Counted from the first letter of the stretch, positions 7,996 through 41,344 are shown. The stretch is 64,000 nt of DNA from a virus (IMGVR_UViG_3300005613_000034), one strand, 5' to 3'. Program-made: numbers and translations. The notes: generated from the letters alone by a model not told the origin.

Positions 7996-9129
7996 CTAAC
8001 TACATTCAAAATTTCCAGCGTTAGTAACTCCACAATTCCAAGTTGTCCCATCTGGAGAGTTCATCAAAACATTACCATCAGTTTTAACAGTTGTTGCTCC
8101 AAGAGAAGTAATAACATTAAAATCAGCATTTAATTCTAAAGCATTATCAGTATCAATAGTTAAATCAGTTCCATCATAATAAATTGAAGCGTCATCTCCT
8201 GCCCCGAATACTATCTTAGAATTATCATTGATTAATTTTAATTCATTGTTACTTGTAAGTTTCATTACCGCATCATTAGTTGTTACACTTGATGAATTTG
8301 TAGTTTTGTTAATTGCCCATATGAAATCTCCTACTCCCCCACTACTTGTTCTTTCGTAAAACATACCACCTTTATAATATCCACCTGCAGTTGTTGCACT
8401 CCATCTTATCCCGGCTGGTGAATTAGGAGTAGTTGTAGTTCTTTTAATACCTATACCTGCATTATCTTCATCTACATTAACTTGTAAAACATTTCTACTT
8501 TCTATAGATGATGAAGCCCAAGTCCCAATCATTGCAAAATTATATACACTCAATAATCCAGTATCTCTATTAAGCTCCATCTTAGTATCCATACCAGTTC
8601 CACCATTAGTATTAAATTGTAAATTATTTGTTGTTGCTCCAGTAAATCTAATTTCAGCTCCCAAATCTGCTCTTTCTAATAATTGCAACGCCGCATCTGT
8701 ATTAACTGCAGTTGCTCTTAATCTTGCAACTGGTGCTGCTGATAACAAATCTAAGGCATAAGAGGGTGTTGTCCCTATTCCTAAATTTCCACCATCTACT
8801 ACCAAGTCACCAGTTCCTACTTCTTGAGGATTAACAATCATATTAGTTCCATCATAATAAATTGAAGCATTATCAGTATCGCCAAAGAAATGTTTAAGAT
8901 TGTCTCCAATACTTAAATCACCAGTTAAAGGGTCATTAATAGTGTCTAAACGCAAATAATTATTATCTAAAACATTTTGATTAATATCAATAAAAACAAA
9001 ATTATCTCCACCGGGAATCCCCGAACCAGTGCAACCGAAAGTCAATATCAAGGCGGCTAGCAACAAAAGTATTATAAAAGGTTTGTTCATACTATAAAAT
9101 AGATTTTTGTTAATTATAAAGCTTTCCAT
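7996..9129 (-). CDS. secreted/lipoprotein-like structural protein with internal repeats
   Basis: signal peptide MNKPFIILLLLAALILTFGC-TGS; repeated ASIYYDGT(N/D)..segments; likely real start at internal Met MNKPF. Confidence 0.6.
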   Translation of the reverse strand: MESFIINKNLFYSMNKPFIILLLLAALILTFGCTGSGIPGGDNFVFIDINQNVLDNNYLRLDTINDPLTGDLSIGDNLKHFFGDTDNASIYYDGTNMIVNPQEVGTGDLVVDGGNLGIGTTPSYALDLLSAAPVARLRATAVNTDAALQLLERADLGAEIRFTGATTNNLQFNTNGGTGMDTKMELNRDTGLLSVYNFAMIGTWASSSIESRNVLQVNVDEDNAGIGIKRTTTTPNSPAGIRWSATTAGGYYKGGMFYERTSSGGVGDFIWAINKTTNSSSVTTNDAVMKLTSNNELKLINDNSKIVFGAGDDASIYYDGTDLTIDTDNALELNADFNVITSLGATTVKTDGNVLMNSPDGTTWNCGVTNAGNFECS

Positions 9130-9180
9130 TATATTTTCACACCTTGTACAGGTTTATTTTTCTTTTGTAAAAAGAAAAAG

Positions 9181-9474
9181 TTATGGGCCTATATAACGTT
9201 GCCCGGTTTGGAAGTCTGAGATTACACTCATGAAGAACAGAAGAACCATTAGAATTCCGCTCATTCCAACTAAAAGATTAATTGTTCCTGAATTACTTAA
9301 CGCAGACATATTTCCTGTTGTAATTGTATGAACAATATCATTTACAACCGGTAAAAACGCGGCTAACATAATCAATCCCATTACCAATGCAAAAAAACTA
9401 TACATTGATCCTTGGCCTTTGTTATCTTTCAAAAATGTTTTCATAAATACACCATTTCTTAACATAATATACAA
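9181..9474 (-). CDS. small hydrophobic 2-TM protein, paralog of 9516..9746 (candidate virion/capsid membrane protein)
   Basis: shared LPVxN(E/D)I...T..G motif and TM topology. Confidence 0.5.
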   Translation of the reverse strand: MYIMLRNGVFMKTFLKDNKGQGSMYSFFALVMGLIMLAAFLPVVNDIVHTITTGNMSALSNSGTINLLVGMSGILMVLLFFMSVISDFQTGQRYIGP

Positions 9475-9515
9475 TTTTCTTATTTATAAACCTTTCTGTT
9501 TTTGTTTAAACTTTT

Positions 9516-9746
9516 TTAGTAATCATACGCCCCCGGAGGTAAATAATTATCATCGGCTTGACTCATCTGAACATACATTACAATAGCCGCGGCAATCAAA
9601 ACTAAAATCATTGATCCTAACATTAGTCCTACCGTTCCCCCCATCGTATTAGTAATTCCTGGAATTAATTCATTCGCAACAGGTAAAAGTACTACTAAAG
9701 AAATCAATCCAACTACAAACATTACTGTTGCTGCATAATAAGACAT
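9516..9746 (-). CDS. small hydrophobic 2-TM protein, paralog of 9181..9474
   Basis: MSYYAATVMFVVGLISLVVLLPVANELIPGITNTMGG... Confidence 0.5.
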   Translation of the reverse strand: MSYYAATVMFVVGLISLVVLLPVANELIPGITNTMGGTVGLMLGSMILVLIAAAIVMYVQMSQADDNYLPPGAYDY

Positions 9747-9806
9747 AATATCACTAATAATTATAGTTCTCTTTTATATATAAACATTACTTTTTTCTGA
9801 AAAAGC

Positions 9807-12800
9807 TTATATTTTCATTTTTAAAAGTTTTTCATTTTCTTTTCCTAATACCGTTCGTTCGAACATATCATTTTTTAAAGCTTTTGCTTGAGCTCTATTT
9901 AATTGTTCTTGAGTTGGAATTGCATCATACCCGAAAAAACTTCCTTTTTTACCAATTGTTTCTCTTACCAATCCAATATTTTCGGCACTTGTAATTAAAT
10001 CTTTTTCTCCGAACGCGAATTTTCTAAACAAACTTGATTTTAATTGAATTAACGGAACTTTTCTTCCAGATTTTTCTCCTTTTTTCTTTTCCGGGTCTTG
10101 TTTCCCCCATCCACTACCAGCACCAAAAATTGGGCTAGCATATAAAGGATATTTATTATATGGTGGAATATACGGTGTAGGATCATATGGATATGGATCA
10201 TACGGTGTAGGATCATATGGATATGGATCATACGGTGTAGGATCATATGGATATGGATCATACGGTGTAGGATCATAAGGAGGTGGTTCATATGGAGGTG
10301 GTTCATATGGAGGAGGTTCATAAGGTGGGGGGGTTTCATATTTACTTGGATAATTTGGTTCTACATAATTTGGATCATTATATAAATTTTTATAATCATC
10401 AATATTATTTACATATTTTGTTTCTTTTAAAATTTTATCATATTCAGTAGTATCTCTTTCGGGCATTAAAATATTCCATCCATCATCAATTTTTTTATAA
10501 TAATCTTCTTTTACATTTTTATTTATATAAGGTGATTTTACAGTATTAATTTCTTCATATAACTCCGCTTGAGTTGGAACAGTGTTATCATATATAATTT
10601 TTAAAGAATCTTTTTGTTTTGGTGTTTGAACTTCAACTTTTGCGGCTTTTATTCCATAAATATCTTCTTTTACATTTTTACCAAGTGAAATTTTTCCTTC
10701 ACTAGGAGTAAATGTGGTTGTTTCTAAAAATCCTTGTTTCTTAAAAAAGTCTGCTTGTTTTTGATTAGCGGAAACCAATGTTTCGTTTTTCCCACTAAGA
10801 GAAATAATTGCAGTATTAACTTTTGGAACTTCATATGGATTTAAAATAGTTGTTTTTTCAACTGAAAATACAGGGCGAACATTTCCAATTAAATCAAATG
10901 CTTCTAACTGATTTCTAGTTCCTGCAGCTAAATTATTTTTAATATATTTTCCTGTTTGTGTTGTTGGGTTTAAAACTTCTTTTGGAGCATATTCAGAAAA
11001 ATATGAAAGTGCTTCTTTGTTTGCACCCCCAATAGTTTTAGACGCTGTGTGGGTATTTATACGTCTTAAAAATTTATCAAATGTTTTCTCATCCATAATT
11101 TTTTTAGCATCGGCCATTATATCACTAGTTTCTAATCTTTTTCCAGATTGATCTAATCTTAAAAAATTATTTTGATTAGATGGTTTTGTTATATAAGGAT
11201 CTGTACTATGTTGAATTTCGTGTAATAATGTACTTGTTTTATTTTTAATACCTTGAAATGGTTTAACAGAAATTGTTCCATCACTAGGTCTATAATATCC
11301 TAAAGATTTTATATCAAAATTTTTCTCCCATTGTAATAAAGATTCATCGGCACCTGTTAATCTAATAGCATCTCTATATCTAGCTGCATCGGCTGCCGAC
11401 CCAGTCAATTCAACACTTGGTGACATTAAATCAGATAAAATTAATTTTTGTTGAGGAATAGTTAAACTTGTTAAACTAAAATCTTTTAATGAAGGAATTG
11501 GTCTTGGTGCATCTCCTAAAACATTAGAATAACCTTCATATGCAACATTTTTAAACCAGTCAATATCTTTAGGTCTCCCAGATTCATAACCACCCATTAA
11601 TTTTCTACGCGCCTGTAATGCGGGGTTTAAAACATTTATACCTTCATCTGTTTTAACCCAACTTGTTGTTCTAGAAAAATCTTGAATATCACTAACTTTA
11701 TTTAATTGTTCATAAAGACCAGTAGCTTTTATTCCATGAATCGATGCAAAATGTTCAGAACCAGCATTTGCTGTTTTTATACTGACTTCCCATCCACCTT
11801 GCCCGGGGTGAATAACAATATCTGTTCTTGGATTGTTAGTAAAATATGTTCCTAAATCAATTTCTCCTTTATGCACATCAACATTTAATCCTTTTGAAGT
11901 AAATTCTTTTGCTATTTTTCCAGCTTGAGAATTAGTTGATAACCCTTCACCAAATAATGTTTTTACTACAACATCAAAATCTTTAGATTTTAAATCTTTA
12001 TTTTTAAATATTTTTGCGGCTTTATCTTTTGCATAAGAAAATGTACTAGATGTACTTCCACCCAATCCAACATCAGAAGAATTTTTTTGTAAATAAGATT
12101 TCATAGCTTCCAATGCTTTTTTTACCCGAGTCCCATCTTTTCCTTTAACTTGTTTTAAATCACTCCATTGAGAATATTCAATAGCTTCATCAAATGTTCT
12201 TGTTTTTGTTGTTTGTGCTGCCTTTCGTAAATCTTTATCAAAAGCTAATTCAATATCTGATGTTGCTTCTATTAACGTTGGTCTTTTTCCAGGTGAATTA
12301 AGAATTCTAAATTCTTTTTTATTTGATTTATTTAAAACAAATTCAGATTCTGGAATAAATGGAGTACCAGGAGTATTTATAACACTTCCCTCTTGAATAA
12401 TTACTTTTGATTCTGGGTTTCTAGCTATTTGTTTTATAATATTTTTAGATGTTGCTTTAGTAACTGGACTAAAAATTTTCTCCCCAATATCAGTTCCTAC
12501 TGGAGCAGCTAACATCATACCAGCTAATTCACTTCTTGCTTTACTACGTTCTTTAACATAAGTATCATATCCTTTTTCTGATGCAATATTATACAAATCA
12601 ACATTTGATTTTAATAAAGATCCAGTAAAATAAGCAGGTAAAACATATTTTCCTACAGTTTCACCAGTTTTTTCAATAAAAGCGAGTTTTTTATTAGCAG
12701 CAAAATTTGTTGTTGTTGTTTTTAAAGGATCTAAGACCCCGGAAAACCCACTTTGTTTAAATTGTTTGGCTGCTTCTGCAGCATCTTTAACAGTATATGT

Positions 12801-15038
12801 TGTGGTTTGAGTTCTTAATCCACCACTAAGTTTTTCAACAGCTTTTACATCCGCTGCATTAACAACCGTTTCCACTCCTTTCATTGCTGTTCCCAAAATT
12901 ACTCCAGTTCTAAGATTATCAGCAATAGTTTGGGCGCTCTGATCTTCTACTAGCATATTATATAAAGTTCCTTTTTGTAAAATTTTAGCGGCCGTTCCAA
13001 CAGTACCAATTTTTGGAAGTGGAGTAAATAAAATTGCTGATTCTGTAACAATTTCACCAAATGCTTCATGTTCGCCTTCCTTCTTTTTAACACCAGATTT
13101 AGAAACAATAACATATTTTTTATCCCACTCTTCTTTAGATAATGTTGCTGAATCAGCAAACGCTTGAGCATATAATTTATTTCCTTTAGGAGTTAAAAAG
13201 TATCCTTTCCCATCAGTAGAGTTATAAATTTTATTAATAATTGTATTATCCCCACGTAAAAAATCTTCTCTAGCTTTTTCAGCTAATTCAGGATCATTAG
13301 TAGCTCTAGCACTTGGAAGCCCTCTTAATACTTCACCACCAACAAACCTAGGAATTGAAAATAAAGATAATGTATCTCTAGCAACAGTAGGTAAAGTTCT
13401 TACTTTATCTGGCATATTAGCAAGTTTAGTTTCCAACATTTTTATATTTTTTTCATGATTTTCTTTCATATAAGGTAAAATTGCATTATCTCTATCATAT
13501 TTTTCCTTTTCTATTTGACGTCTAACAATTTCTTTTGCCCCCTCAGAAGAAATTTCTCCTTTACCAAAATCAATTTTATAATCAGTATCGCTTGGGGTAA
13601 TACCAAAAGTCGTCTTTTCCCCAGATATTGTAGAAGCCGCAAACTCAAGTGGTAAAACACTAATATTATAAGGAATTACTGCAGTATCTCCCACAAATTT
13701 TCCAACATCTAACACATTATCAGCTTTTTTATTTTTATCTAATTGATTATAAAATTTTCTTTCAACATTTCCCCAAAGTTCTCCAACAGTTTCATTCTCT
13801 CTTCTCATATCTTTATAATAAACTAAGTCCTCTTTAGCTTCTTTTAATTGATTAGTATCTTCAGTTAATTTAGCTAAAATATTTCCAATCCCATATTGAT
13901 TTTTATATTCATCATATGTTAATGTTTTATTTGTAGAAGAATCAAAATAAGGGGTTTTTTCATATTTTGTTTGTAATAATTTTTCATATTGTCCTTTATC
14001 TTTTTCAGATAATTTATCATATACCTCTTTAAATGTATCCCCTTTAATTAAATTAGCTTCTTTTGTATATTTATTAAATACATCTTCTTCTCTTTTTTGT
14101 ATATTAAATTTTTGATCTATACTTTTTATTTTTTCAACGTTTTTATTAATTGTAAATAACAACAATTCTTTCTCTGCTTCACTTAATGTATTATTAGGAG
14201 ATTCATACTTTTCAATATCAGTATTTGTTTTATCAACTAATTCTCTATATCCACTATAATTAACATCTGGATTTAATACTATATCTTTTCTAAATCCTTT
14301 ATATTCTTTTCCGGCTTCTGTATCAGGAATTTTTGTTCCAAGGTTAATTTGTGGCGTAGATTCATCTATAATAGATTGATCTAAACTTCTTGATGCTATA
14401 ACATTTCTAAAATATTCATCTTTTTTAATATTAGAAACATCTTTACCAGCAACAACATCTTGTGCAATCTTTGTAGCTAAATTACCACTTTTCATAATAT
14501 CAGTAATAGATTCATTCTGTTCAACTGTATTAAGTATATTTTTTCTTTCGTCTTGTAATTTAGAAAATTTTTCTCTAACTTCCTGTGATTCAATTGGATA
14601 ATTTGGTTTAGATGTTTTATTAAGTTTTACCTCACTCTTTTGCACAATTTTTACATTTTCGTTTCCTGCAGTTTTAAGATATTTAGAAGGTGGGGGAGCA
14701 CTAAAATATTTAGAAGTTGGTTTAGATGTAATATAAGAGCCGCCTTTTTTAACTCTTGGGGGTTGAGTAGTTCCAGCTTTACTAATAACAAGTTTTTTTG
14801 GAGGAGTGCTTTTAGGTTTAATATATTTAGAAAGTGGAGGCTGCGCGATAGGCTTAAAATAACTTCTATTTTCAGTAACAGTTCTTAATTCAGTAGGTGC
14901 TGATTGGCGAGCCTCTTCATAAGAAACTTTTCTATACCCCGCGCCTGGATCAACCGTAGAAGACATTCCTTGCCCGGTTTTAACATTAATATATTGCCCT
15001 GCACCACGATTAGCAGAAGAATTTACTGTAATGGCCAT
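9807..15038 (-). CDS. giant (1743 aa) putative virion-associated protein with HExxH motif and C-terminal Pro/Tyr tandem repeats
   Basis: LLHEIQHS motif; EPPPY x4 + DPTPYDPYPY x3 repeats; Lys-rich N-terminus. Confidence 0.7.
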   Translation of the reverse strand: MAITVNSSANRGAGQYINVKTGQGMSSTVDPGAGYRKVSYEEARQSAPTELRTVTENRSYFKPIAQPPLSKYIKPKSTPPKKLVISKAGTTQPPRVKKGGSYITSKPTSKYFSAPPPSKYLKTAGNENVKIVQKSEVKLNKTSKPNYPIESQEVREKFSKLQDERKNILNTVEQNESITDIMKSGNLATKIAQDVVAGKDVSNIKKDEYFRNVIASRSLDQSIIDESTPQINLGTKIPDTEAGKEYKGFRKDIVLNPDVNYSGYRELVDKTNTDIEKYESPNNTLSEAEKELLLFTINKNVEKIKSIDQKFNIQKREEDVFNKYTKEANLIKGDTFKEVYDKLSEKDKGQYEKLLQTKYEKTPYFDSSTNKTLTYDEYKNQYGIGNILAKLTEDTNQLKEAKEDLVYYKDMRRENETVGELWGNVERKFYNQLDKNKKADNVLDVGKFVGDTAVIPYNISVLPLEFAASTISGEKTTFGITPSDTDYKIDFGKGEISSEGAKEIVRRQIEKEKYDRDNAILPYMKENHEKNIKMLETKLANMPDKVRTLPTVARDTLSLFSIPRFVGGEVLRGLPSARATNDPELAEKAREDFLRGDNTIINKIYNSTDGKGYFLTPKGNKLYAQAFADSATLSKEEWDKKYVIVSKSGVKKKEGEHEAFGEIVTESAILFTPLPKIGTVGTAAKILQKGTLYNMLVEDQSAQTIADNLRTGVILGTAMKGVETVVNAADVKAVEKLSGGLRTQTTTYTVKDAAEAAKQFKQSGFSGVLDPLKTTTTNFAANKKLAFIEKTGETVGKYVLPAYFTGSLLKSNVDLYNIASEKGYDTYVKERSKARSELAGMMLAAPVGTDIGEKIFSPVTKATSKNIIKQIARNPESKVIIQEGSVINTPGTPFIPESEFVLNKSNKKEFRILNSPGKRPTLIEATSDIELAFDKDLRKAAQTTKTRTFDEAIEYSQWSDLKQVKGKDGTRVKKALEAMKSYLQKNSSDVGLGGSTSSTFSYAKDKAAKIFKNKDLKSKDFDVVVKTLFGEGLSTNSQAGKIAKEFTSKGLNVDVHKGEIDLGTYFTNNPRTDIVIHPGQGGWEVSIKTANAGSEHFASIHGIKATGLYEQLNKVSDIQDFSRTTSWVKTDEGINVLNPALQARRKLMGGYESGRPKDIDWFKNVAYEGYSNVLGDAPRPIPSLKDFSLTSLTIPQQKLILSDLMSPSVELTGSAADAARYRDAIRLTGADESLLQWEKNFDIKSLGYYRPSDGTISVKPFQGIKNKTSTLLHEIQHSTDPYITKPSNQNNFLRLDQSGKRLETSDIMADAKKIMDEKTFDKFLRRINTHTASKTIGGANKEALSYFSEYAPKEVLNPTTQTGKYIKNNLAAGTRNQLEAFDLIGNVRPVFSVEKTTILNPYEVPKVNTAIISLSGKNETLVSANQKQADFFKKQGFLETTTFTPSEGKISLGKNVKEDIYGIKAAKVEVQTPKQKDSLKIIYDNTVPTQAELYEEINTVKSPYINKNVKEDYYKKIDDGWNILMPERDTTEYDKILKETKYVNNIDDYKNLYNDPNYVEPNYPSKYETPPPYEPPPYEPPPYEPPPYDPTPYDPYPYDPTPYDPYPYDPTPYDPYPYDPTPYIPPYNKYPLYASPIFGAGSGWGKQDPEKKKGEKSGRKVPLIQLKSSLFRKFAFGEKDLITSAENIGLVRETIGKKGSFFGYDAIPTQEQLNRAQAKALKNDMFERTVLGKENEKLLKMKI
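10171..10325. repeat. tandem repeats: 3 perfect 30-bp units (+partial) then 3x 15-bp units, encoding DP(T/Y)PY / EPPPY
   Basis: tacggtgtaggatcatatggatatggatca x3; aggtggttcatatgg x3. Confidence 0.9.
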
Positions 15039-15076
15039 ACATTATAATAGAGCATATTCATTTAAAAGCTTTTTGT

Positions 15077-16438
15077 TCAATCATTCAAAAAAACTTTTTT
15101 TCTAGTAGTAGTATTAACCATTCTTGAAGCTCTAATAGGAGCACCTTGTTCACCGGTAACATAAGATTTTGTAGCGCTTTCTCTAATTTTAGCAACATCT
15201 TTTTTAGTTTCGTCAACAAGTGATTTAAAACGAGACGGAGCTTCCTGCTCACCATACAAAGCCCCTCTAAGATTTTCTAAACTTTTATTAACCTGCTGAG
15301 CTTCAACATTTCTTTTATATTCACTTAAACTTGTTTTACCACGTGAAATAGTACTAGGCCCACCAAGAGAAGCTTTTCTTTTAAACTTTTTCTTCAAAGC
15401 TCTATCCAACGATTCAGATCTTTTATCAAACCTACTTTGTTCAGAAGCTAAAATACCACCATAAATTTTTTCAATCAATTCTGCGCGCTTAGCTTCATAT
15501 TCAGCTTCATCAGTATAAGTTCCATAAACGGGTTCATACCCAATAGTATATCTTTCTTCATAAGAAGTAGGAACATCATATTCTCCAATAACCGCTTTAC
15601 CTGTTTCAGGATCATAATAAAGAATAGGAGGAGCATCTTTAGTACTTTGAGATTCAGTAATTGATACTTCCGGAGTATCTTTTAATACACCAGCTAAAAA
15701 TGGAGAAGTTCCACTAATATCAAAATAATTTTTATATTTATTAGGATCGGGGGCATAAACTGTAGTCCCAGATGAAGACCCACTAAATCCTGTAAATCCA
15801 CCAGACCCAGAAGGTAAATATTTAGACGCATTTTGAATTACTCCGCCTTTAACATCTCCCGCAGCATAAGCTTTAGAATAAGCTTCGGCTTTAGCATAAT
15901 TAGCTGTACCAGGTTTATAAGGATTAGATTTTAAAGGTAATGCCCCAGAAGATTGAGGTTTAGGAGCACTATAACTTGAACTTCCTCCACCACTAGATGA
16001 CCCACCACCAGACCCATAAGTAGCACCACGCGCAATATTAGAAGCTCTATAACTTGCATAAGATTGCCCTCTTAATAATCTTTGTCTATCTTTGTCAAAC
16101 GGATAACAATCAATGTTATTAGGGACTCCATCCCCATCAAAATCAAAATCTTTATACAAACCACGTTCACCAGGGAAATCCGGCTTATTCATATATTTTT
16201 TAGAAAGATTTAAAGCTTTATTCGCATATTTCTTAGCTTTTTTAGCAGAATACCCGCGTCTCATCAAATCTTTTTGAAACCTTTTAACTTGCCCGGGAGT
16301 CAATGATTGAGTTTTTGCTGGCATTTCATGAGCAAAATTATTTATCATATCAGCATCAGACATTAAATTTCCAATAGGTAAAGGATCAACTCTAACGCGT
16401 CTAACCTTTCCTTGAGAAAGTTTATCTAACCAATTCAT
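15077..16438 (-). CDS. hypothetical structural-module protein with calcium-binding-like DxDxDG motif and Gly/Ser-rich linker
   Basis: DFDGDGVPNNIDCYPFD; GSGGGSSSGGGSSS. Confidence 0.5.
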   Translation of the reverse strand: MNWLDKLSQGKVRRVRVDPLPIGNLMSDADMINNFAHEMPAKTQSLTPGQVKRFQKDLMRRGYSAKKAKKYANKALNLSKKYMNKPDFPGERGLYKDFDFDGDGVPNNIDCYPFDKDRQRLLRGQSYASYRASNIARGATYGSGGGSSSGGGSSSYSAPKPQSSGALPLKSNPYKPGTANYAKAEAYSKAYAAGDVKGGVIQNASKYLPSGSGGFTGFSGSSSGTTVYAPDPNKYKNYFDISGTSPFLAGVLKDTPEVSITESQSTKDAPPILYYDPETGKAVIGEYDVPTSYEERYTIGYEPVYGTYTDEAEYEAKRAELIEKIYGGILASEQSRFDKRSESLDRALKKKFKRKASLGGPSTISRGKTSLSEYKRNVEAQQVNKSLENLRGALYGEQEAPSRFKSLVDETKKDVAKIRESATKSYVTGEQGAPIRASRMVNTTTRKKVFLND

Positions 16439-16478
16439 ATTATAAATAAGAAGTTATTTATTTATAAACCTTTTGTTT

Positions 16479-18686: not shown

Positions 18687-19412
18687 TTAATGTACGAATA
18701 CATTTAAAAAGGTTTCGGTAGTCTTGCTTCCGATACCATCAACCTTAAAAGACCCGTCATTCAGTGCTTTACGAAGAGAAGAAAAATCCGGGTAAATTTT
18801 TTCAATTGATTTAGCTTTCTCTTCACTTATATTAGGTAAAGACATTAAAACATTTCGGTAAGTATTATCTTTATGTTTAGCATGTGTTATTGCCATACCT
18901 CTTATCTCTTTTCCATCTGTAAGCTTTTCGGCAACCATTAACAAAAAATCAATAAATTCATCGTCATTTTTAACAAAAATCATTTCTACATTAGTATATC
19001 GCGCGGCAACACTAGACATAATTCCAAGAAGCTGATTTCGAGAAAAAGTTTTTACATTTTGTACTATTCCCATAGCTTTTAGCTTCGCCCGTTCTTTGTA
19101 AATAGCATCGATGTCACCAACGACAATTAAAAAATTTTTAGAAAAACTATTATTCATCTTATAAAGCTCTGAAAATATTCTTCCATTATAAATTGATCCA
19201 ACTAAATCACTAAAAATCTTTCGCTCAACACAAAATTTATGTCCTGTTTCTTTATTTTCAACAATATAATCTCCAATTTTAAGTTGTTTCATTTCATATT
19301 TAACTCCAGCGGCATCAAATTTTGGAATAATATTTTTATCAATACTATTTTTATGTTCTTCTCTATGATCAATTGTTATATTAAAATTATCTTTATTTAC
19401 CATATTTATCAC
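18687..19412 (-). CDS. XPF/Mus81/Hef-family ERCC4 nuclease with C-terminal HhH
   Basis: IGDYIV...CVERK signature (GDxnERKxxD); C-terminal DGIGSKTTETF HhH. Confidence 0.75.
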   Translation of the reverse strand: MINMVNKDNFNITIDHREEHKNSIDKNIIPKFDAAGVKYEMKQLKIGDYIVENKETGHKFCVERKIFSDLVGSIYNGRIFSELYKMNNSFSKNFLIVVGDIDAIYKERAKLKAMGIVQNVKTFSRNQLLGIMSSVAARYTNVEMIFVKNDDEFIDFLLMVAEKLTDGKEIRGMAITHAKHKDNTYRNVLMSLPNISEEKAKSIEKIYPDFSSLRKALNDGSFKVDGIGSKTTETFLNVFVH

Positions 19413-20031
19413 CTTTCTTTAAATTATCTTCAGCCCATAAAGGTTGTAAATTTTTATAATTAAAACATTTTTTCTGTTCTTCTAGTTTACTTAAATCAAA
19501 ACTTACACAAGGTTTAATATGATCAATATGCCAACCAAATTTTCCATAATTATCCCAAGACATTCCGTCCTTAAATTGTTTTTCTAAATGTTGTTTACAT
19601 TCTTCAATAGAACAACCTAAAAGTTCTTTTGTACAATCAGATTTATAATTTCCTTTTAATGCATGAATTATTCTCATTCTTTGATTTGTAGCAATTCTAA
19701 AATTAATATTATTTTTACGTCTATTTTTTAAATATAAATTAATTTTTTTTCTATTATTAATAGAATATATTTTTTTATTGTTTGAAATTTTTTCTTTATT
19801 ATTTTCTCTATATTTTTTATCAGATATTCTTTTCTTTTCAATATTATTTTTTCTATATTTTTTCATTTTTTCTTTCATTATTTCTTTATTTAATTTATAA
19901 TAATTATTTGTTTGTGTTTTTATTTTTTCTTTATTTTTTTCATAATATAATTTATTATATTTATCTGTTTGAATTTTTATTTTTTCTTTATTTTTTAAAC
20001 GATAATTTTTCATATATTCTTCTTTAGTCAT
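19393..20031 (-). CDS. HNH endonuclease with Lys-rich repetitive N-terminus
   Basis: GWHIDHIKPC...N..LQPLW..N..K HNH core. Confidence 0.8.
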   Translation of the reverse strand: MTKEEYMKNYRLKNKEKIKIQTDKYNKLYYEKNKEKIKTQTNNYYKLNKEIMKEKMKKYRKNNIEKKRISDKKYRENNKEKISNNKKIYSINNRKKINLYLKNRRKNNINFRIATNQRMRIIHALKGNYKSDCTKELLGCSIEECKQHLEKQFKDGMSWDNYGKFGWHIDHIKPCVSFDLSKLEEQKKCFNYKNLQPLWAEDNLKKGDKYGK

Positions 20032-22287: not shown

Positions 22288-22632
22288 CTAAACGCCCCGC
22301 GCCCCTTTTAATATATAACTCAATATCCCAATGATACCAAGAATAATCGACCCTACTAAAATTAAAGGAAGAAGTCCTAACATATTAGAAACTGATTTCC
22401 CATAAACTTCTGTATTTAAAGCACTTGTAATCTCACTATATACATATATCCCAATCAAAAAATATAAAATAGTAAATATAATTGAAGTTGGTTTTATATT
22501 AAAATTTTTAAGTACAGATAAAATTGCATCTTCTTGAACAGAAACAACCTTGTTGGTTTTATCATTATATTTTAATTTATTAGTATGTTTAGAAAAATCT
22601 GGAATGGCAATTTTTAATTTCATAAATATCAC
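22288..22632 (-). CDS. membrane protein
   Basis: 3 predicted TM segments. Confidence 0.45.
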   Translation of the reverse strand: MIFMKLKIAIPDFSKHTNKLKYNDKTNKVVSVQEDAILSVLKNFNIKPTSIIFTILYFLIGIYVYSEITSALNTEVYGKSVSNMLGLLPLILVGSIILGIIGILSYILKGARGV

Positions 22633-23890: not shown

Positions 23891-24624
23891 TCAAAAAATG
23901 CTGCTAATGTAGTTTGAGAATTCTTGATGTTTACCACTCTTTTTTAAATTATCTTTAGCCCATAAAGGTTGGAGATTAGTATAATTAAAACATTTCTTCT
24001 GTTCACTTTCTTTAGATAAATCAAACGAACAACAAGGTTTAATATGATCAATATGCCAACCAAATTTTCCATAATTATCCCAAGACATACCGGGTTTAAA
24101 CTGACTCTCCAAATGTTTCTTACATTCATCAACTGTACAACCAAGTAATTCTTTAATTGATACACTTTTTTCATTTGTTTTTAAAGAATTTTTAAATCGC
24201 TTTCTTAAATTATCTAATAATTTAAATTCCCAATCATTTTTTAATCTTTCTTTTTTATATTCAATACATTTTTTAATAATTTTTTCTTTATTTTTTAAAT
24301 AATATTCTCTTGATTTTTTTCTATATAATTCCTTATTTTTAATATATCTTATATGTTGTTTTTCTTTTATAATTTTTTTGTTTTTTTCTCTATATTCTTT
24401 TTTATATTTTTTAATTTTTTCTAATATTTTTTCCTTATTTTTATTAAAATATATTTTTTTCTTTTCATATAATTCATCTTTATGATATTCATAATATTTT
24501 TTCCATCTTTTTTACATTCTTCTTTATTTTTTTCTCTATATCTTTTCCATTTACAATATTTAGAACAATATAAAATACGTTTATTTTTTGAAATAAATGT
24601 TTTATTACATAATTTACATTTCAT
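23891..24624 (-). pseudogene. second HNH endonuclease copy, apparently disrupted
   Basis: 73-aa intact C-terminal ORF near-identical to C-terminus of 19393..20031; upstream Lys-rich part in a different frame (24421..24624). Confidence 0.5.
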
Positions 24625-26514: not shown

Positions 26515-26736
26515 TTATAACCTCTTAATAATTAACTGATGTCTAAAATTTTCTTTAAAACATTCTAAACAAATAATAAATTTAGTATAATGCGGAAGTT
26601 GTTTATATAATTCCGGGCTTGATAACAAACTACCACCATTCTTATTTACACCTTTATTATAAACATCTTTGCCACACCATTCACATTTACCAATAGGAGG
26701 ATAATTTCCTGGAGGTCTTCCGCGTTTAGCTTTCAT
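26515..26736 (-). CDS. small zinc-finger protein
   Basis: CEWCG...CLEC; start taken at MKAKRGRPP. Confidence 0.4.
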   Translation of the reverse strand: MKAKRGRPPGNYPPIGKCEWCGKDVYNKGVNKNGGSLLSSPELYKQLPHYTKFIICLECFKENFRHQLIIKRL

Positions 26737-29554
26737 TAGAACCACCTTCAGTTGCAAAAAGATTATCTTTAGCAAAATCTCCAAAAATAATTTTTAAAGG
26801 TTTATCATTATTAACTAAAATAAATCTTTTACCATCAATTTCAGAAATTTCAATTGAATAAGATTGTGCCAACTTAGAAGAATGTTTCAACGCCCTATAA
26901 TTAATTTCCGGAGTCCCCCTATTTTCAGGTTTATAAGAATTATCTTCCAAAATATATTTTTCTAAGCCAACGAAAGGAATTTCCTTGTCACTCCCATTTC
27001 TTCTAACATAAGAATAAACAGCATATAAAAAACATTTAATTTCCGCGGCCTCATCATCAAACAAAGATTTAATATATCTTTCCATAATACTATTAGTAAT
27101 ATCCCCTTCAATCATTTCTTTAAAACTATTAATGTTAATACCTTGAATAATATGTAAATATTTTTTAGCAGAATCAATCAATTTTTTAAAATCAATATCA
27201 TCATTGATTAAATCATTCATATATTCAAGAGCCGCAAGACGAAGAGCCATACCATTCATGTGTTTATGACTTGAAACATTACCAACCAAAAATTCTTTAA
27301 AGCTTTGCATATCAGTGTGTTTAGCTAATTCAGTCAATGCATCTTGGTAATTTTTTTCGAAAGGAGCATCTAAAAATTTTAACACGCTTGGGTTTTTTAA
27401 TAATAATGAAAACTTTTTAGAAGTAATGAATCTTAAATACTCAAATTTTGCTTCTAAATCATTAACTTCATCTTCTGTAAGTTTACTATCTCCAGAAATT
27501 CTTTTAGTGTTTGGGTCGAAAACAACAAGAGCGATTCTTGACCCCAAAGCAGCATAATTATTAGTAATTAATTTTAATGTTGAATCAAACTGACTAACAA
27601 TTTTTATTTCGTTTATTCGTTCGCTCGCTAACAAATCATCTTTAGGATTTCCGAGAAAAGTTAAAGATGATAACCCGCGGCAAGTAATACTTTTTTTACC
27701 AACATCAATATTAACTTCACCGCTTTCCATAAAACTCAATAATTTACCATACATCATTTTAGATTCATCTTCTTGGATTTCATCAAGATAATAAGGATTA
27801 GTATTTTCGTGAAGAGTCCCACGATTAATTTCATCACTTGTAGAAAATCCTAAAAGATTTTTAACAGTAGTTCTAATTGCATTGTGCCCAAACCGACTAC
27901 TAATAGTTGATTTTCCAGCTTTAGTTCCAGTGAATAAAAATTTATGATTGTTATAATACTGATATTTTTTATAATCTGAAATAGACATATCCGGAACAAA
28001 GAAGTCAGATTCAAATGCTAATGATACTTTATCATCAACATTCATACCCATTCTAACATAATGTTCAACAATATCTTTTAAATCTTCATTAGATAAAGAT
28101 TTCATATCAGCCTCATCAATACCATGCCCAATAGTATAAAAAATACAATTAGTAGATTTAGCATCTTGTTCTATTAAATAATCAAAAACAGTTTTATTAT
28201 TATCATTCAATTTTTTAATGAACGTATCAACCCGTTTATTCTTTATACCTTGGGAAATAAGAATTTTTTCCAGAATGTGCTCTTCAGGGGGATTTTTTAA
28301 AAATATTGAATATAATCTTTTATTAGATTTAAGAGGAATAAGATAACGTTCGTTATCCCCTTCTTTCAAATCACTTTCATTTTCAGTAAAACAATAACTA
28401 GAAAAGTTACCAGCTAAAAATTTTATCTCGAATAAATTATAAACATATTCTTTACGAGTAGTATTATGAATACCACTTGTAACGATTCCATGCTGATAAA
28501 AAATTTTTTTAACTTCAAAAGACGCGCGGATTGCACGTTTAACACTTCTATTAGTTTTTTCATTATACCTAAAATTATTATACGGACATAAAGAACAAAC
28601 ATCTTTTAAATTATGTTCTTTACAATAATTACTAATCTCACCACAATTAAAAATACGAAACTCATCATTTTTAAATTTTTCATCCCAACCAACAAACTCC
28701 TGCTCATCCATCCCCTGAACTTTCAAAAAATTCTTTCTCAAATCTTTATTACCACTAAAATTAGTATAAACAGAAAGATTTTTAATCAATGTTGCATGAC
28801 GACTACCTTCTGGCATTTTTTCCTGTAAACAAATTTCATCAAAAAATTTACATTTCCTAGCACCCTCGATACTCGCGCTAGTTTTAATACCATTAACTTC
28901 TTTAACATTAGAAGATTCAGCAGACTTATTTTGTTTATAAAGCGCTTCAATAAAATCAATAAATTCATCATTATCATCATATCCAGTATAATCCATCCAA
29001 TAAGAAAGTTTTTCTGCAGAATTATTATAAGTTCCGATGACACGAGTAACACGAGAAAGATTAAATGTTTTACTATCAACCGCAAATTTATCAATCAAAA
29101 AATTTTTAAAATACTCAATTTTTTTCTTAATTGTTTCACGATTAGATTCATTAACTTTAATTCTTTTAAACGGTATTAAAATATGGTATCCTCGGCCACT
29201 AAACGCCAAAGAAGTTTTAATACCATTATCTTTAAGTTTATTATTCAATGAATAAACATCTTTTTGAAGTGCTTCATCGGAAATATGGTCTCCGTGAGCA
29301 TCAAAATCAATAAAAATAGTACTAAGATATTTTACATCTTCATCACGCTTACCAGATTCAATACGTTCATTGATTCCAGTATAAACATCTTTCCCCTCAT
29401 CTGATAATTCAATCACTTTATTGATATATTCAGTTTTTGTTTTAACAAATGAAGATTTTGCGGGATTGAATACCCGAATTTCTGTTTCTTTTTCATGATT
29501 TAGTATATTATAATACTTTTCAATGTCATCTCTATTATTTCTTTCCGATACCAT
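26726..29554 (-). CDS. primase-polymerase (AEP prim-pol) fused to C-terminal P-loop NTPase/helicase-like domain (pRN1 ORF904-like replicase)
   Basis: IFIDFDAHG and AFSGRGYHILIPF prim-pol motifs; later Walker A FTGTKAGKST. Confidence 0.8.
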   Translation of the reverse strand: MVSERNNRDDIEKYYNILNHEKETEIRVFNPAKSSFVKTKTEYINKVIELSDEGKDVYTGINERIESGKRDEDVKYLSTIFIDFDAHGDHISDEALQKDVYSLNNKLKDNGIKTSLAFSGRGYHILIPFKRIKVNESNRETIKKKIEYFKNFLIDKFAVDSKTFNLSRVTRVIGTYNNSAEKLSYWMDYTGYDDNDEFIDFIEALYKQNKSAESSNVKEVNGIKTSASIEGARKCKFFDEICLQEKMPEGSRHATLIKNLSVYTNFSGNKDLRKNFLKVQGMDEQEFVGWDEKFKNDEFRIFNCGEISNYCKEHNLKDVCSLCPYNNFRYNEKTNRSVKRAIRASFEVKKIFYQHGIVTSGIHNTTRKEYVYNLFEIKFLAGNFSSYCFTENESDLKEGDNERYLIPLKSNKRLYSIFLKNPPEEHILEKILISQGIKNKRVDTFIKKLNDNNKTVFDYLIEQDAKSTNCIFYTIGHGIDEADMKSLSNEDLKDIVEHYVRMGMNVDDKVSLAFESDFFVPDMSISDYKKYQYYNNHKFLFTGTKAGKSTISSRFGHNAIRTTVKNLLGFSTSDEINRGTLHENTNPYYLDEIQEDESKMMYGKLLSFMESGEVNIDVGKKSITCRGLSSLTFLGNPKDDLLASERINEIKIVSQFDSTLKLITNNYAALGSRIALVVFDPNTKRISGDSKLTEDEVNDLEAKFEYLRFITSKKFSLLLKNPSVLKFLDAPFEKNYQDALTELAKHTDMQSFKEFLVGNVSSHKHMNGMALRLAALEYMNDLINDDIDFKKLIDSAKKYLHIIQGININSFKEMIEGDITNSIMERYIKSLFDDEAAEIKCFLYAVYSYVRRNGSDKEIPFVGLEKYILEDNSYKPENRGTPEINYRALKHSSKLAQSYSIEISEIDGKRFILVNNDKPLKIIFGDFAKDNLFATEGGSNES

Positions 29555-30234: not shown

Positions 30235-33200
30235 TTATTTTTTTGGTAAAATATCGCCCGCAGTTAGACACTTTGGACAAAATTTATGATTACCAGAAAT
30301 ATATCCGTGTAGTGGGCACACACTGAAAGTTGGGGTGATTGAGACATATGGTATTGAATAATTAGTAAAAATTTTCTTAATTAGATTTTTTACTGATTCA
30401 CCATTAGCTTTATGTTCACCTAAAAATATATGAAAAACCGTATTATGAACGAAAACCATACAATCATTACCAGCTAAATAATTATGGTTGTTTTTTGTTG
30501 TTAAATCATAAAACATATTATCTTTAACATTATGTTTATTTATAGATTTAACACGCGTTACAGGTAAAAATCTGGTATTTCTATTAGATTTTTGTGTTTT
30601 TATATAATTTTTATCTTTTGTTAAATTTAAGTTGTTTTTTTCTTGTGTTAAATAATAACTTGGTATTTGAAATATATAAATTAAAACTTCATTTATTTTT
30701 TTAGGTTGTCTTTTTCGTAATGAAAATGGAATTCCTGCTATAGAAAAAATTTCTTTTAAATCATTTTTAAGATTTTCTGATACAGTATAATATTCTCCTG
30801 TTCCTTGTTTTTTATTAATATGCCCATCTGAGTCTAATAATCCACTAATAAAGTGAAAAACATTATTTTTATTAAAATTATTTTTTATATAATTTGAAAC
30901 ACGAACATTATATGTTTTAGAACCAGGTTTAAATCCACATAATTTAAAAAAATTAATTATATTTTCTTTTGATGTTGGCAAAATCTTTAAATTTTTAGTC
31001 CTTTTATCTATATGTGACTTTGATATATTGGAATTGAAATTATTATTAAGAACATTTATAATTTTATTTATTGTTTTATCATTAGTTGAAAAAAATCTAA
31101 TTTTTTCTTTTTTAATATTATTATTCCCTCTATTATCATAATATGTACTCATACTACCATCCCCAATATAAAATCCTAACAACCACATTAAATCATTATT
31201 AATTTTTGAAGATTTATTTTTATATAAATTTGTTGATGTTTTTAAAATATAATCATTTTTTAATAATTCATCTGCTCGTTTTTCTATTATTTTTTTTGTT
31301 TTTTTATCATATACAAAAAATGGGTGCCAATTAGATGTAACAATATCTAAACCAAATTCACCAATTATTTTAATTTTATCTTTTTTAGAAACATCTATTT
31401 TCATTGCATCTATAACATCATCCCATTCACTAACATTTTTTTCTTTATTATAACTTAAAACTTTTAAATTTTTTAATTTTTTAAAATTATAAACTAAATC
31501 TTCAATTTTCATTAATCCTTTATTTGTTAAAATATCATTTCCTTTTTCTATACATCCACCGTTATAAATAGTTTGAATATCGTTCTGATTATCTAAAATA
31601 TTGAATAAATTCTTTTTAGAATCAACTTTTACTTGTGTTGAATTTGTGTAATATGGCGCCGCTTTATATTTTTCATAATTTTCGTTATTAGCGACTATTA
31701 TATCTGCATATTTTTTCTTGTCTTGTGCAGCAAATCTTCGGGTTACTCCTTCTGCTGGTGTAGCTTCCAAATTATATTCTTGCCCATCTTCTGCTTTATA
31801 TTGTTCTAATCTATTTTTCATATGATTCATTACTTTAATTGTAAATGCTTTACCTTCTTTAGATAATATATCCTTCCCTAAAAAGTTTTCGCATGATTCA
31901 TTCATACCATTCAATCCTATCGTGTTGAAATGGTTTGTCCAATATTGCCCTGTGTTTTGTTTGATATGGCGCATATAAAATTTTGTAAATGGAAAAAGTC
32001 CTTGTTCTGTCCATTTTTCAACAAACTTTCGTTTTTGTCTTAAAATTGTTGCTGACGCGTCCATTAATTCATCTAATCTATTAAAATAATCTCTTTCTGA
32101 ATGAGCAAGGTATCCTATTCTTGGCATATTTATAGTTACTACTCCCACCGAACCAGTTAACGGGTTTGCTGCAAACAACCCTCCTCCCCTTTTATTTAAT
32201 GTTTTTTTCTCTAACCGTAATCTGCAGCACATACTTACAGTATCTTCTGGGCTCATATCTGAATTAATATAATTTCCAAAATAAGGTATTCCATATTTTG
32301 CTGTAGCATCCCAAATTATTTTATGATTAGGATTATTCCAGTCAAAATTTTTATCAATATTTATTGTAGGAATTGGAAATGTAAAAACCTTTCCATTTTT
32401 ATCCCCTTCTAGATAAACTTCAAATAAAATTCTATTGAATAAATCAATTTCGGGTTGGAAATCTTTATAATTAACATTTTGAATTTTTCCACCTATAATA
32501 ACAGGAAGATTTTCCATATGTTTCGGGGGAGTTAAATCAAGCGTTATATTTGAGAAAGTTGATTGCCCACCAGATCTTGTGGTTACATTCATATTAAATA
32601 CAAATTCCTGTAGTGCTTGTTTAACTTCTTTTTCTGTTAATCCATCAAATCTAATAAAAGGGGCTAAATATGTATCAAAATTTGCAAATGCTTGGGCCCC
32701 AGAAAATTCATTTTGTGTTGTAAATAGAAAATTGACTATCTGCCCTAATGCACTTCTAAAATGTTTTGGGGGTGCTGATTCAATTTTTGATTCTACTCCT
32801 CCAAATCCTGTCAACAATAAATCTCTTAAATCCCATCCTTGACAATATGTACTTAAAGATCCTAAATCATGAATATGTAAATCTCCTTCAAAATGATATT
32901 TTGCAACTTCGGGGGCGAACACTTTATTCAACCAATATGTAGAACTAACTTTTTGTGCTATATTATGATTTAATCCTGATAATGAATATCGTGAATTTGA
33001 ATTTTCTTTTACTCTCCAATCAGCTTGGTTTAAATAATTATCTATTACAGCAGTATCTTCTACTATATTTTTAAAATTTCTTAAACTTTCGTGTTGGTGT
33101 CTATATAAAATATAAGATTTTGCAACTTTATCATGCCCGCGTTTAATAAGTGTCCTTTCGATAATGTCTTGAATTTCTTCAACAGACATCTCTTTTTTCT

Positions 33201-33360
33201 TTTCTTTTTTAATATTTTTTAAAATTTCATGTAGTAACACATCAAATTTTTCTTTATCATTGCCGCCTACACTTTTAACAGCATTCCATACGGCCCTTTC
33301 TATCTTTTCTTCATGAAATTTTTCCCTAGCTCCGTTTCTTTTTATAATAAATTCTATCAT
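30235..33360 (-). CDS. nrdD: anaerobic ribonucleoside-triphosphate reductase (class III, NrdD-like) with N-terminal ATP-cone, interrupted by an intein
   Basis: ATP-cone IIKRNGAREKFHEEKIERAV; SMCCRLRL resembling the NrdD thiyl-Cys region; C-terminal Cys cluster plus GY; extein ~670 aa. Confidence 0.75.
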   Translation of the reverse strand: MIEFIIKRNGAREKFHEEKIERAVWNAVKSVGGNDKEKFDVLLHEILKNIKKEKKKEMSVEEIQDIIERTLIKRGHDKVAKSYILYRHQHESLRNFKNIVEDTAVIDNYLNQADWRVKENSNSRYSLSGLNHNIAQKVSSTYWLNKVFAPEVAKYHFEGDLHIHDLGSLSTYCQGWDLRDLLLTGFGGVESKIESAPPKHFRSALGQIVNFLFTTQNEFSGAQAFANFDTYLAPFIRFDGLTEKEVKQALQEFVFNMNVTTRSGGQSTFSNITLDLTPPKHMENLPVIIGGKIQNVNYKDFQPEIDLFNRILFEVYLEGDKNGKVFTFPIPTINIDKNFDWNNPNHKIIWDATAKYGIPYFGNYINSDMSPEDTVSMCCRLRLEKKTLNKRGGGLFAANPLTGSVGVVTINMPRIGYLAHSERDYFNRLDELMDASATILRQKRKFVEKWTEQGLFPFTKFYMRHIKQNTGQYWTNHFNTIGLNGMNESCENFLGKDILSKEGKAFTIKVMNHMKNRLEQYKAEDGQEYNLEATPAEGVTRRFAAQDKKKYADIIVANNENYEKYKAAPYYTNSTQVKVDSKKNLFNILDNQNDIQTIYNGGCIEKGNDILTNKGLMKIEDLVYNFKKLKNLKVLSYNKEKNVSEWDDVIDAMKIDVSKKDKIKIIGEFGLDIVTSNWHPFFVYDKKTKKIIEKRADELLKNDYILKTSTNLYKNKSSKINNDLMWLLGFYIGDGSMSTYYDNRGNNNIKKEKIRFFSTNDKTINKIINVLNNNFNSNISKSHIDKRTKNLKILPTSKENIINFFKLCGFKPGSKTYNVRVSNYIKNNFNKNNVFHFISGLLDSDGHINKKQGTGEYYTVSENLKNDLKEIFSIAGIPFSLRKRQPKKINEVLIYIFQIPSYYLTQEKNNLNLTKDKNYIKTQKSNRNTRFLPVTRVKSINKHNVKDNMFYDLTTKNNHNYLAGNDCMVFVHNTVFHIFLGEHKANGESVKNLIKKIFTNYSIPYVSITPTFSVCPLHGYISGNHKFCPKCLTAGDILPKK
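30442..31554 (-). mobile_element. intein (371 aa) with LAGLIDADG homing endonuclease
   Basis: N-splice GG|CIEKGNDILT; LLGFYIGDGS and ISGLLDSDGHI LAGLIDADG motifs; C-splice VFVHN|T. Confidence 0.8.
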
Positions 33361-41282: not shown

Positions 41283-41344
41283 TGGATAGAGAAGGATTCG
41301 AACCCTCTAACGCGTAATGTTTAGCACCTCTAAACTATCTATCC
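41283..41344 (-). ncRNA. tRNA-like minihelix / degenerate tRNA (acceptor stem + T-arm intact; D and anticodon arms replaced by one short hairpin)
   Basis: 5' GGATAGA / 3' TCTATCC-A acceptor; T-arm GAGGG-TTCGAAT-CCTTC; 62 nt total, too short for a canonical tRNA; overlaps ligase stop. Confidence 0.45.

Follow-up and report, generated by a model that had tools for sequence, protein, structure and literature searches.

A conserved five-gene module with paired hydrophobic hairpin proteins in a candidate lineage of large non-tailed archaeal viruses

We analysed 64,000 nucleotides of the virus IMGVR_UViG_3300005613_000034 (the window, meaning this whole stretch of DNA at its full length; G+C ~30%) and describe a block of five adjacent genes on its minus strand. 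In the direction of transcription, the open reading frames (ORFs) encode a basic protein of 453 amino acids (aa; 15077–16438), a giant mosaic protein of 1743 aa (9807–15038), two small hydrophobic proteins that we term hairpin A (76 aa, 9516–9746) and hairpin B (ORF of 97 aa, 9181–9474), and a secreted repeat protein (ORF of 377 aa, 7996–9129). The initial annotation had proposed this set as a structural block; all five ORFs were recovered on the minus strand at the sizes it gave, and each motif it had named (DxDxDG, HExxH, Pro/Tyr repeats and a lipobox-like site) was located in its ORF.

Hydropathy placed two hydrophobic segments in each small protein. Hairpin A has two hydrophobic helices, no Lys or Arg, an acidic Tyr/Pro tail and an LLPV sequence in which the Pro ends helix 1, and hairpin B has a basic N-terminal extension ending in KGQGS, followed by two hydrophobic helices. 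The two had been described as paralogous, which was borne out by pairwise comparison (26% identity, E = 1e-5) and by profile–profile alignment with hhalign (96.6% probability, E = 5e-10; reversed control 0.5%). Structure prediction of one hairpin protein with AlphaFold2 (AF2) returned helices at residues 3–35 and 37–63, with a mean predicted local distance difference test score (pLDDT) of 85. A profile search of 1.84 billion representative proteins recovered 24 clusters, nearly all of 69–98 aa, and the family divides into A (76-aa-like) and B (97-aa-like) branches. The Pro that ends helix 1 was invariant (30 of 30 family members), and a near-invariant [KN][GA]QGS motif preceded helix 1 in the B family and was missing from paralog A. 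Only six close homologues of the 76-aa protein were found among 5.8 billion clusters, and hairpin B was the best-conserved gene of the module (62–85% identity in relatives). A match of the 97-aa protein to SpoIIIAC (22.8 bits, below the cut-off of 24) was taken as a hydrophobic chance match.

The giant protein is basic (isoelectric point, pI, 9.0) and contains no Cys, no transmembrane (TM) segment and no signal peptide. Its conservation across the family is confined to ~90 aa at each end, with a mosaic middle. The basic N-terminal region (aa 5–93, 14760–15026, minus strand; pI 10.2) showed 33–45% identity to the giant proteins of six related loci (L014, L018, L019, L021, L022 and L024), and the basic C-terminal domain (aa 1654–1743, 9810–10079, minus strand; ..LIQLKSSLFRKFAFGEKDL..GSFFGYD..PTQEQL..) was 43–76% identical in 20 non-identical loci, where it always ends just upstream of the hairpin genes and provides the family signature FRKFAFGE...FFGYD. 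Giant homologues at the equivalent position in relatives span 1402–2501 aa. The single HExxH motif, HEIQH (aa 1273–1277, nucleotides 11208–11222), lies in an optional module (aa 1263–1368, 10935–11252, minus strand), which occurred only in the window, in L021 (LLHEIQHS) and in L013 and L014 (LIHELAHK). Its matches to metallopeptidase families were weak and below threshold (DUF6782, E = 0.021; M90, E = 0.23). Three other giant homologues carry a NUDIX domain (E = 4e-18 to 3e-15) at the place where the window protein has HExxH, and most of the giant sequence contains no recognisable domain.

Ahead of the C-terminal domain, a 15/30-nucleotide in-frame tandem repeat (10170–10322, minus strand; repeat family D1) encodes a low-complexity linker of (E/D)P(P/T/Y)PY units, EPPPY and DPTPYDPYPY among them, with four PPPY motifs; linkers at the equivalent place in relatives are Pro/Tyr-rich or Ser-rich, and the giant protein of L022 has ten PPxY motifs (nine PPTY and one PPPY). 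More speculatively, such tandem PPxY motifs could act as late-budding motifs that recruit the endosomal sorting complexes required for transport (ESCRT), if the host has ESCRT. The sole close homologue of the full protein (P0007, 99% identical), on the ENA contig k141_970554, differs only by a 60-nucleotide (20-aa) indel in this repeat (10179–10238, aa 1587–1606), which is either a copy-number polymorphism or an assembly collapse. By eye, GGS...DFDVVV gave us the idea of a Pol-beta-type nucleotidyltransferase in aa 940–1200; the AF2 model of this region, computed with no alignment, was unusable (pLDDT 39.5).

The 453-aa protein is likewise basic (pI 9.5), with no TM segment or signal peptide. 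It carries DFDFDGDGVPNNIDCYPFD, a calcium-binding-type motif (DFDFDGDG..DC.PFD) that homologues retain as MDFDGDGV..DC.PFD, in a conserved N-terminal region (aa 33–136) followed by a Gly/Ser-rich low-complexity stretch. No family in Pfam, PHROG or NCBIfam matched it, and TSP_3 reached only E = 0.21. Similar proteins are encoded directly upstream of the giant gene in L018, L022, L024 and L027; in L024, a 71-kb relative, two tandem paralogs (3–2699) precede a giant of 2501 aa.

At the downstream end of the module, the secreted protein is acidic (pI 4.2), with repeated ..DASIYYDGT.. motifs. It most likely starts at M14, at MNKPFIILLLLAALILTFGC (MNKPF), which gives a protein of 364 aa (7996–9090) with a signal peptide formed by that segment and a single N-terminal hydrophobic segment ending in a lipobox-like LTFGC. 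The proteins that L009, L010, L017 and L035 encode in this slot keep the site as L[T/F][F/L/M]GC. The only family match of the window protein was to phrog_29834, of unknown function (E = 4e-6). Searches of PDB sequences (phmmer/hmmsearch) with this protein, with the giant protein and its core profile, and with the hairpin profile returned nothing meaningful.

All five genes have individual promoters of archaeal type, with a TFB-recognition element (BRE) and TATA box, on the minus strand. The BRE/TATA promoter of the 453-aa gene, AAAGGTTTATAAATAA (16458–16473, TATA 22 nucleotides upstream of the ATG), recurs as an exact 16-nucleotide copy upstream of the 97-aa gene (9480–9495; repeat family D12), and near variants of it precede the lipoprotein and giant genes. 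The 38-nucleotide spacer between the 453-aa and giant genes holds the BRE/TATA-like element AAAAGCTTTTAAATGA (15059–15074, TATA 21 nucleotides from the ATG) and no Shine-Dalgarno sequence for the giant gene. The 76-aa gene has a TATA box, GTTTATATATAA (9774–9789), 30 nucleotides from its ATG, and is preceded by the variant TTTATATA; a TATA-like element also stands upstream of its orthologues in relatives. For the secreted-protein gene, the promoter is AAAGCTTTATAATTAA (9110–9125), with the TATA box 22 nucleotides upstream of the internal ATG at 9090. Because of these promoter positions we corrected the starts of the lipoprotein ORF, as given above, and of the 97-aa ORF, which most likely begins at 9465 (94 aa) or 9444 (87 aa, MKTFLKDNKGQGS). 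In a survey of promoters and Shine-Dalgarno sequences, every module gene had its TATA box 21–30 nucleotides upstream of the ATG and lacked a Shine-Dalgarno sequence, an arrangement that implies leaderless mRNAs; among the remaining ORFs of the window, roughly one in two has a GGAGG-type Shine-Dalgarno instead. The positioning of BRE/TATA promoters for leaderless transcripts supports a predicted archaeal host.

We found 22 loci, two of them identical to the window, in a metagenome scan with the giant C-terminal domain, and in these loci the domain is followed by hairpin A and/or hairpin B. The order 453-like protein, giant, hairpin A, hairpin B recurs, and in the longer loci the 453-like gene can be seen ahead of the giant and a secreted protein behind the hairpins; where only partial genes lie upstream of hairpin homologues, the last ~90 residues of the giant are the only conserved part. 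The slot downstream of the hairpins is filled by a lipobox protein, by a protein with a signal peptide and C-terminal anchor followed by a second, secreted and highly repetitive giant, or by a Vsr-like nuclease in opposite orientation. Related contigs from the Joint Genome Institute (JGI) were Ga0247841_10000941 (71 kb, of which 20 kb were read) and Ga0315274_10001425 (36.7 kb, read in part). Directly downstream of the hairpin genes, several relatives have IS200/IS605-type transposase-like genes, recognised by eye from an HxH motif (L011, 2111–2380; L018, 10928–11347; L019, 6344–6763). No relative occurred in 185,579 GTDB genomes scanned with both hairpin families, which argues against a chromosomal gene cluster and leaves no host assignable. 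Isolate phage and virus records (INPHARED, tblastn with the 97-aa, 364-aa and family B DNA polymerase proteins) likewise contained no relatives, and a literature search on the contig names of the relatives found nothing.

We then compared the hairpins with the VP1/VP3–VP21 capsid proteins of spindle-shaped archaeal viruses. Both have the architecture of that group, with ~70–100 aa in the mature form, two hydrophobic helices and a short polar loop, and the Pro at the end of helix 1 is also found in SSV1 VP1/VP3, His1 VP21 and the BLv25 capsid protein. The [KN][GA]QGS motif of the B family has parallels in the BLv25 capsid protein (RGQAG) and in fusellovirus VP1 precursors, whose known cleavage region has K[GA]EG[S/V/F]. 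With hidden Markov models (HMMs) of A, B and A+B, His1 VP21 ranked first of 149 ORFs from SSV1, His1 and PAV1 (A+B, E = 0.0016, 11.7 bits, colinear across both helices), and in BLv25 the annotated capsid protein came first among 43 ORFs (B, E = 0.00045; A+B, E = 0.0011; A, E = 0.22). Tested in this way, the accepted link between fuselloviruses and halspiviruses did not score better (E = 0.01 and 0.044), and shuffles that preserved segments reached the real score in 10 of 2000 (A+B against VP21) and 14 of 2000 cases (B against BLv25; p ~0.005–0.007). With composition correction, BLASTP gave no significant match between the hairpins and SSV1 VP1/VP3, His1 VP21 or PAV1 ORF121. Homology to halspivirus and fusellovirus capsid proteins is suggestive and unproven. 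By analogy, hairpin A is a candidate capsid protein with a VP3-like layout and hairpin B one with a VP1-like layout and a possible cleaved propeptide, and a capsid-like role is the most likely function of the pair. A third two-helix membrane protein, of 111–114 aa, lies beside an SPFH gene (22288–22632, minus strand), is kept in a relative (L018, 1384–1719), and was the top match in the window for the fusellovirus VP1/VP3 HMM (E = 0.026, not significant).

Pfam, PHROGs and/or NCBIfam were scanned with the window ORFs of at least 200 aa plus a few shorter ones, and statements on gene content below refer to this set. As initially proposed, no terminase, portal or HK97 capsid gene, the hallmarks of Caudoviricetes, was recognisable among the ORFs of at least 200 aa. 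The replication and repair genes comprise a D5-like helicase, a family B DNA polymerase (PolB), an ATP-dependent ligase, ERCC4, Vsr-like and PD-(D/E)XK nucleases, and nucleotide metabolism is represented by an anaerobic ribonucleotide reductase, NrdD, split by an intein with a LAGLIDADG homing-endonuclease domain (30235–33360, minus strand). A class III reductase of this kind implies an anaerobic host. Also encoded are a Dam-type methyltransferase, a PAPS reductase, an SPFH protein, sugar-modifying enzymes, a MoxR-like ATPase with a VWA/metallopeptidase partner, and a XerA-like integrase that scored below the cut-off. The single large ORF with no match in Pfam, PHROGs or NCBIfam encodes 942 aa (26726–29554, minus strand); by eye it resembles a primase-polymerase of the archaeo-eukaryotic primase (AEP) type (IFIDFDAHGD, SGRGYH) with a Cys-rich zinc finger and a Walker-A helicase (GTKAGKST), and PDB-sequence searches (phmmer/hmmsearch) with it gave nothing meaningful.

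Taken together, we consider particle building, in a new lineage of large non-tailed archaeal viruses with genomes of at least 64 kb, to be the most likely function of the module, and assign this reading a probability of about one half. The conserved module, the missing tailed-virus hallmarks in the window and the archaeal promoters uphold this part of the initial annotation, and the genes for PolB, AEP primase-helicase, D5-like helicase, NrdD, ligase, nucleases, methyltransferases and tRNA, a virus-like set, speak for it; membership of the VP1/VP3 or His1 capsid families was not supported by the curated models or by HH-suite comparison. A more specific version, in which the lineage ranks at family level or above, has genomes of 64–71 kb or more, uses a hairpin capsid remotely related to those of His1 and SSV, and packages a polyvalent effector of 1400–2500 aa, is in our judgement quite improbable as a whole.

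The assignment of the giant protein as a fibre or spike was not upheld. It has neither signal peptide nor TM segment, is basic, is conserved only at its ends, and exchanges NUDIX and HExxH modules between relatives; since export signals are missing, only the ends are conserved and the enzyme modules are exchangeable, it does not resemble an exported fibre and is probably not one. It is better likened to phage polyvalent proteins, as internal cargo whose enzyme modules are interchangeable, and the secreted lipoprotein, with its predicted lipid anchor, is a better candidate than the giant for a spike or adhesin role.

Under the proposed particle-forming function, viruses of this lineage, with at least 64 kb of DNA, would live in anoxic habitats and assemble at membranes instead of as tailed icosahedra. 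The five genes would be transcribed from their own BRE/TATA promoters, presumably strong ones, mostly as leaderless messages. Hairpins of ~75–90 aa would then insert into the host membrane and form a capsid or envelope lattice as VP21 and VP1/VP3 do, with paralog B first shedding its basic N-terminal extension at the K-G/A|Q-G-S junction. The acidic lipobox protein, which carries the export signals described above, would be exported and anchored on the particle surface as an adhesin, a place taken in some relatives by the protein with a signal peptide and C-terminal anchor and by the secreted repetitive giant. The 453-aa protein and the giant would stay in the cytoplasm and be packed inside the particle with the DNA, the giant through its conserved basic ~90-aa ends, and its interchangeable middle modules (HExxH zincin-like, NUDIX) would act in the next host cell.

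Several results weigh against this interpretation. The putative role in a particle is deduced from genes, and because the element runs past both window ends, it may carry other capsid genes beyond them. The scanned ORFs include no morphogenesis ATPase like those of fuselloviruses, halspiviruses or wyrdviruses. The curated models PF06281 (VP1_VP3) and PF25665 (His1_capsid) of Pfam and PHROG 11172 and 5402 left the hairpins unmatched even at E = 10; PAV1 ORF121, reportedly proposed as a member of the VP1/VP3–VP21 group by Krupovic and colleagues in 2014, fails the same test, so its sensitivity is low. Alignments with hhalign against fusellovirus, His1, PAV1 and His1+BLv25 profiles gave 0.4–12% probability, no better than reversed controls, and reverse searches were unspecific, as neither the fusellovirus HMM nor VP21 ranked the hairpins first in the window. 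The predicted hairpin fold matched, in Foldseek against PDB and BFVD, only generic helical hairpins including holins (E > 1). The weak HMM link to halspivirus capsid proteins was confirmed neither by the Pfam models nor by HH-suite. Finally, six different queries, the 71- and 36.7-kb contigs included, found no relative in IMG/VR, which means that no virus-detection pipeline has called these contigs viral.

The last point would also be expected of a non-viral mobile element, a large plasmid or one spread in vesicles, whose block would encode vesicle, contact or exclusion proteins, as would the failure of the hairpins to match any known capsid family; the haloarchaeal plasmid pR1SE is reported to spread in membrane vesicles. 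Archaeal elements of 44–85 kb with no known capsid have moreover been published, carrying a primase–superfamily 3 (SF3) helicase and PAPS reductase and judged 'perhaps more likely plasmids' (Medvedeva et al., bioRxiv 10.1101/2021.07.29.453957), and the window shares a D5-like helicase and PAPS reductase with them. We nevertheless hold a plasmid to be unlikely. The scanned ORFs include no genes for partition, conjugation (VirB4/VirD4-like) or plasmid replication initiation; large lytic viruses are the more usual carriers of tRNA genes, NrdD, ligase, PolB and many nucleases; and the hairpin HMMs repeatedly, if weakly, ranked halspivirus capsid proteins best.

Equally, the extension of the element beyond both window ends, and of a related contig to 71 kb (20 kb of it read), leaves room for a tailed or icosahedral virus with its capsid genes outside the 64-kb window. 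The block would then be an accessory module for membrane and host interaction, in which the hairpins are holin-like or mediate superinfection exclusion, the lipoprotein is an exclusion factor and the giant is an injected effector or tape-measure-like protein. Foldseek matches included phage holins and membrane proteins, at non-significant E, and some tailed phages encode pairs of a MoxR-like ATPase and VWA protein (phrog_1297). We also count for this explanation that tailed phages are known to make giant mosaic proteins bearing enzyme modules, namely polyvalent or ejection proteins. Its probability is nonetheless low in our estimate: carriers of hallmark genes would be expected in IMG/VR, where the 71- and 36.7-kb JGI contigs are missing, exported lipid-anchored proteins of structural type and separately promoted hairpin genes are atypical of tailed-virus modules, no endolysin lies nearby, and the high conservation of hairpin B (62–85%) suits a capsid protein better than a holin. 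We hold it very improbable that hairpin B is instead related in type to type IV pilins, its class III signal peptide being cut at K-G|Q, and that the block encodes a surface filament or an apparatus for adhesion. The conserved basic N-region of hairpin B, with [KN][GA]Q and a hydrophobic helix after it, does recall archaeal prepilin cleavage sites. However, hairpin B has a further TM helix and lacks a globular domain, its G-S-M residues at +2 to +4 depart from the usual hydrophobic pattern, paralog A lacks the motif, and the scanned ORFs include neither an assembly ATPase nor a platform protein or prepilin peptidase.

Outside the module, nearly all genes from 54.6 kb down to position 1 lie on the minus strand and those from 55.6 kb onwards on the plus strand. 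Between them, at 54650–55590, a non-coding region of ~950 bp coincides with the strand switch and a change in the sign of GC skew, and contains two arrays of the 9-nucleotide repeat TATAAATT(A/T) (54936–54991 and 55076–55116); we regard it as a possible origin of replication or divergent promoter region. A 285-nucleotide direct repeat (19402–19686 and 23927–24211, copies 77% identical) flanks a cassette of an aminotransferase, an epimerase, two small membrane proteins and the SPFH protein, and AT-rich repeats of ~45–57 nucleotides adjoin both copies. Three adjacent ORFs of 301, 268 and 274 aa stand beside the MoxR-like ATPase and VWA/metallopeptidase pair, and they may be paralogous, as short DNA repeats at their gene ends are common to them and to a 228-aa ORF (44552–47121 and 49948–50634, minus strand). 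Low GC, one coding strand per arm and tandem repeats brought a Borg-like element to mind, which we ruled out on the paucity of high-quality tandem repeats and the virus-like genes. The element continues beyond both ends of the window: position 1 lies among virus-type genes, and the far end has a HAD-like gene followed by a complete tRNA-Ile (63876–63948) and the onset of a second tRNA-like sequence (AGCCCCGTAGTGTAGCGGCCAAGCAT...CTTTGAA..., 63953–64000, plus strand), which begins 4 nucleotides past tRNA-Ile, is cut by the window end and indicates a tRNA array on the element. A degenerate 62-nucleotide tRNA-like element overlaps the 3' end of the DNA ligase gene (41283–41344, minus strand); it scored 37.6 bits against the Rfam tRNA model with permissive filters and was missed by ARAGORN and default Rfam. 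The archaeal tRNAs initially claimed are thus borne out only in part, by one complete tRNA, one truncated tRNA-like start and one degenerate element.

Knowledge of non-tailed archaeal viruses comes almost entirely from extremophile isolates whose genomes are small. Since the capsid proteins of these viruses are tiny and hydrophobic, they escape metagenomic pipelines. The five-gene signature (FRKFAFGE...FFGYD; hairpins with LLPV and KGQGS) retrieves a whole lineage of large elements that is absent from IMG/VR, INPHARED, the GTDB genomes and the Pfam, PHROG and NCBIfam libraries, and it offers targets for proteomics, cryo-electron microscopy and host assignment from CRISPR spacers. If the module makes particles, the size range of archaeal viruses with hairpin capsids would grow several-fold, mesophilic anoxic hosts would be added, and giant modular cargo proteins would enter archaeal virology. 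Delivery of polyvalent effectors, if true, would be a first among non-tailed archaeal viruses.

Among known systems, the polyvalent proteins of phages and conjugative elements, reportedly described by Iyer and colleagues in 2017, invite comparison with the giant, which is very large and has conserved ends and a mosaic middle where relatives exchange HExxH zincin-like or NUDIX modules, but no MuF-type or other known packaging domain was detected in the giant; we know of no such proteins described for non-tailed archaeal viruses. As described, the enigmatic Asgard elements of 44–85 kb share with the window the size class, the lack of a recognisable capsid, a presumed origin in anoxic sediment metagenomes, and a primase/SF3 helicase, PAPS reductase, methyltransferases and nucleases, yet they carry TFB, PCNA, Rad51-like or Topo mini-A genes, none of which occurred in the scanned ORFs.

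Closer parallels come from viruses with hairpin capsids, although the element does not fall within the Fuselloviridae or Halspiviridae as we delimited them, by genomes of ~13–24 kb, a DnaA-like AAA+ ATPase, and an SSV-type integrase or a protein-primed PolB with terminal inverted repeats; it exceeds 64 kb, with termini that lie beyond the window, no DnaA-like ATPase was found among the scanned ORFs, and its integrase is XerA-like. Wyrdviruses of Asgard archaea are likewise known from sediment metagenomes only, with one or two ~80-aa His1-like capsid paralogs beside an adhesin gene and variable replication modules that include PolB; by their published description they differ in having capsid proteins detectable with HHpred and a conserved ATPase, and their genomes are smaller (15.6 kb for WyrdV1, related contigs >10 kb, and at most 20 kb across three groups; bioRxiv 10.1101/2021.07.29.453957). 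Fuselloviruses, here SSV1 (PF06281, with VP4 in the end filament), assemble by budding at the membrane, according to literature cited in that preprint, and share adjacent paralogous hairpin capsid genes with a large protein gene nearby; the VP1 propeptide ends in K-G/A-E-G-S right before helix 1 and VP3 has no propeptide. They differ in that their capsid sequences do not match the hairpins, the genome here is 4–5 times larger, the scanned ORFs include no DnaA-like ATPase of the SSV type, and the giant, compared with the fusellovirus terminal fibre, has enzyme-like modules and no export signals. Halspiviruses have genomes of 13–14.5 kb compared with >64 kb here, and a single capsid gene in His1 where the module has two paralogs; neither His1 nor BLv25 has an equivalent of the giant, their largest annotated products being a 717-aa DNA polymerase (His1) and a 427-aa protein (BLv25). 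They nonetheless share, in His1 VP21 (PF25665) and BLv25, a mature capsid protein of ~75–80 aa with two helices, an LLP sequence and a polar loop, in BLv25 an N-terminal extension with RGQAG before helix 1, and in His1, by its annotation, downstream genes for proteins with a signal peptide and membrane anchor. By these analogies, the closest functional counterparts of the module would be the morphogenetic modules found in halspiviruses, fuselloviruses and wyrdviruses.

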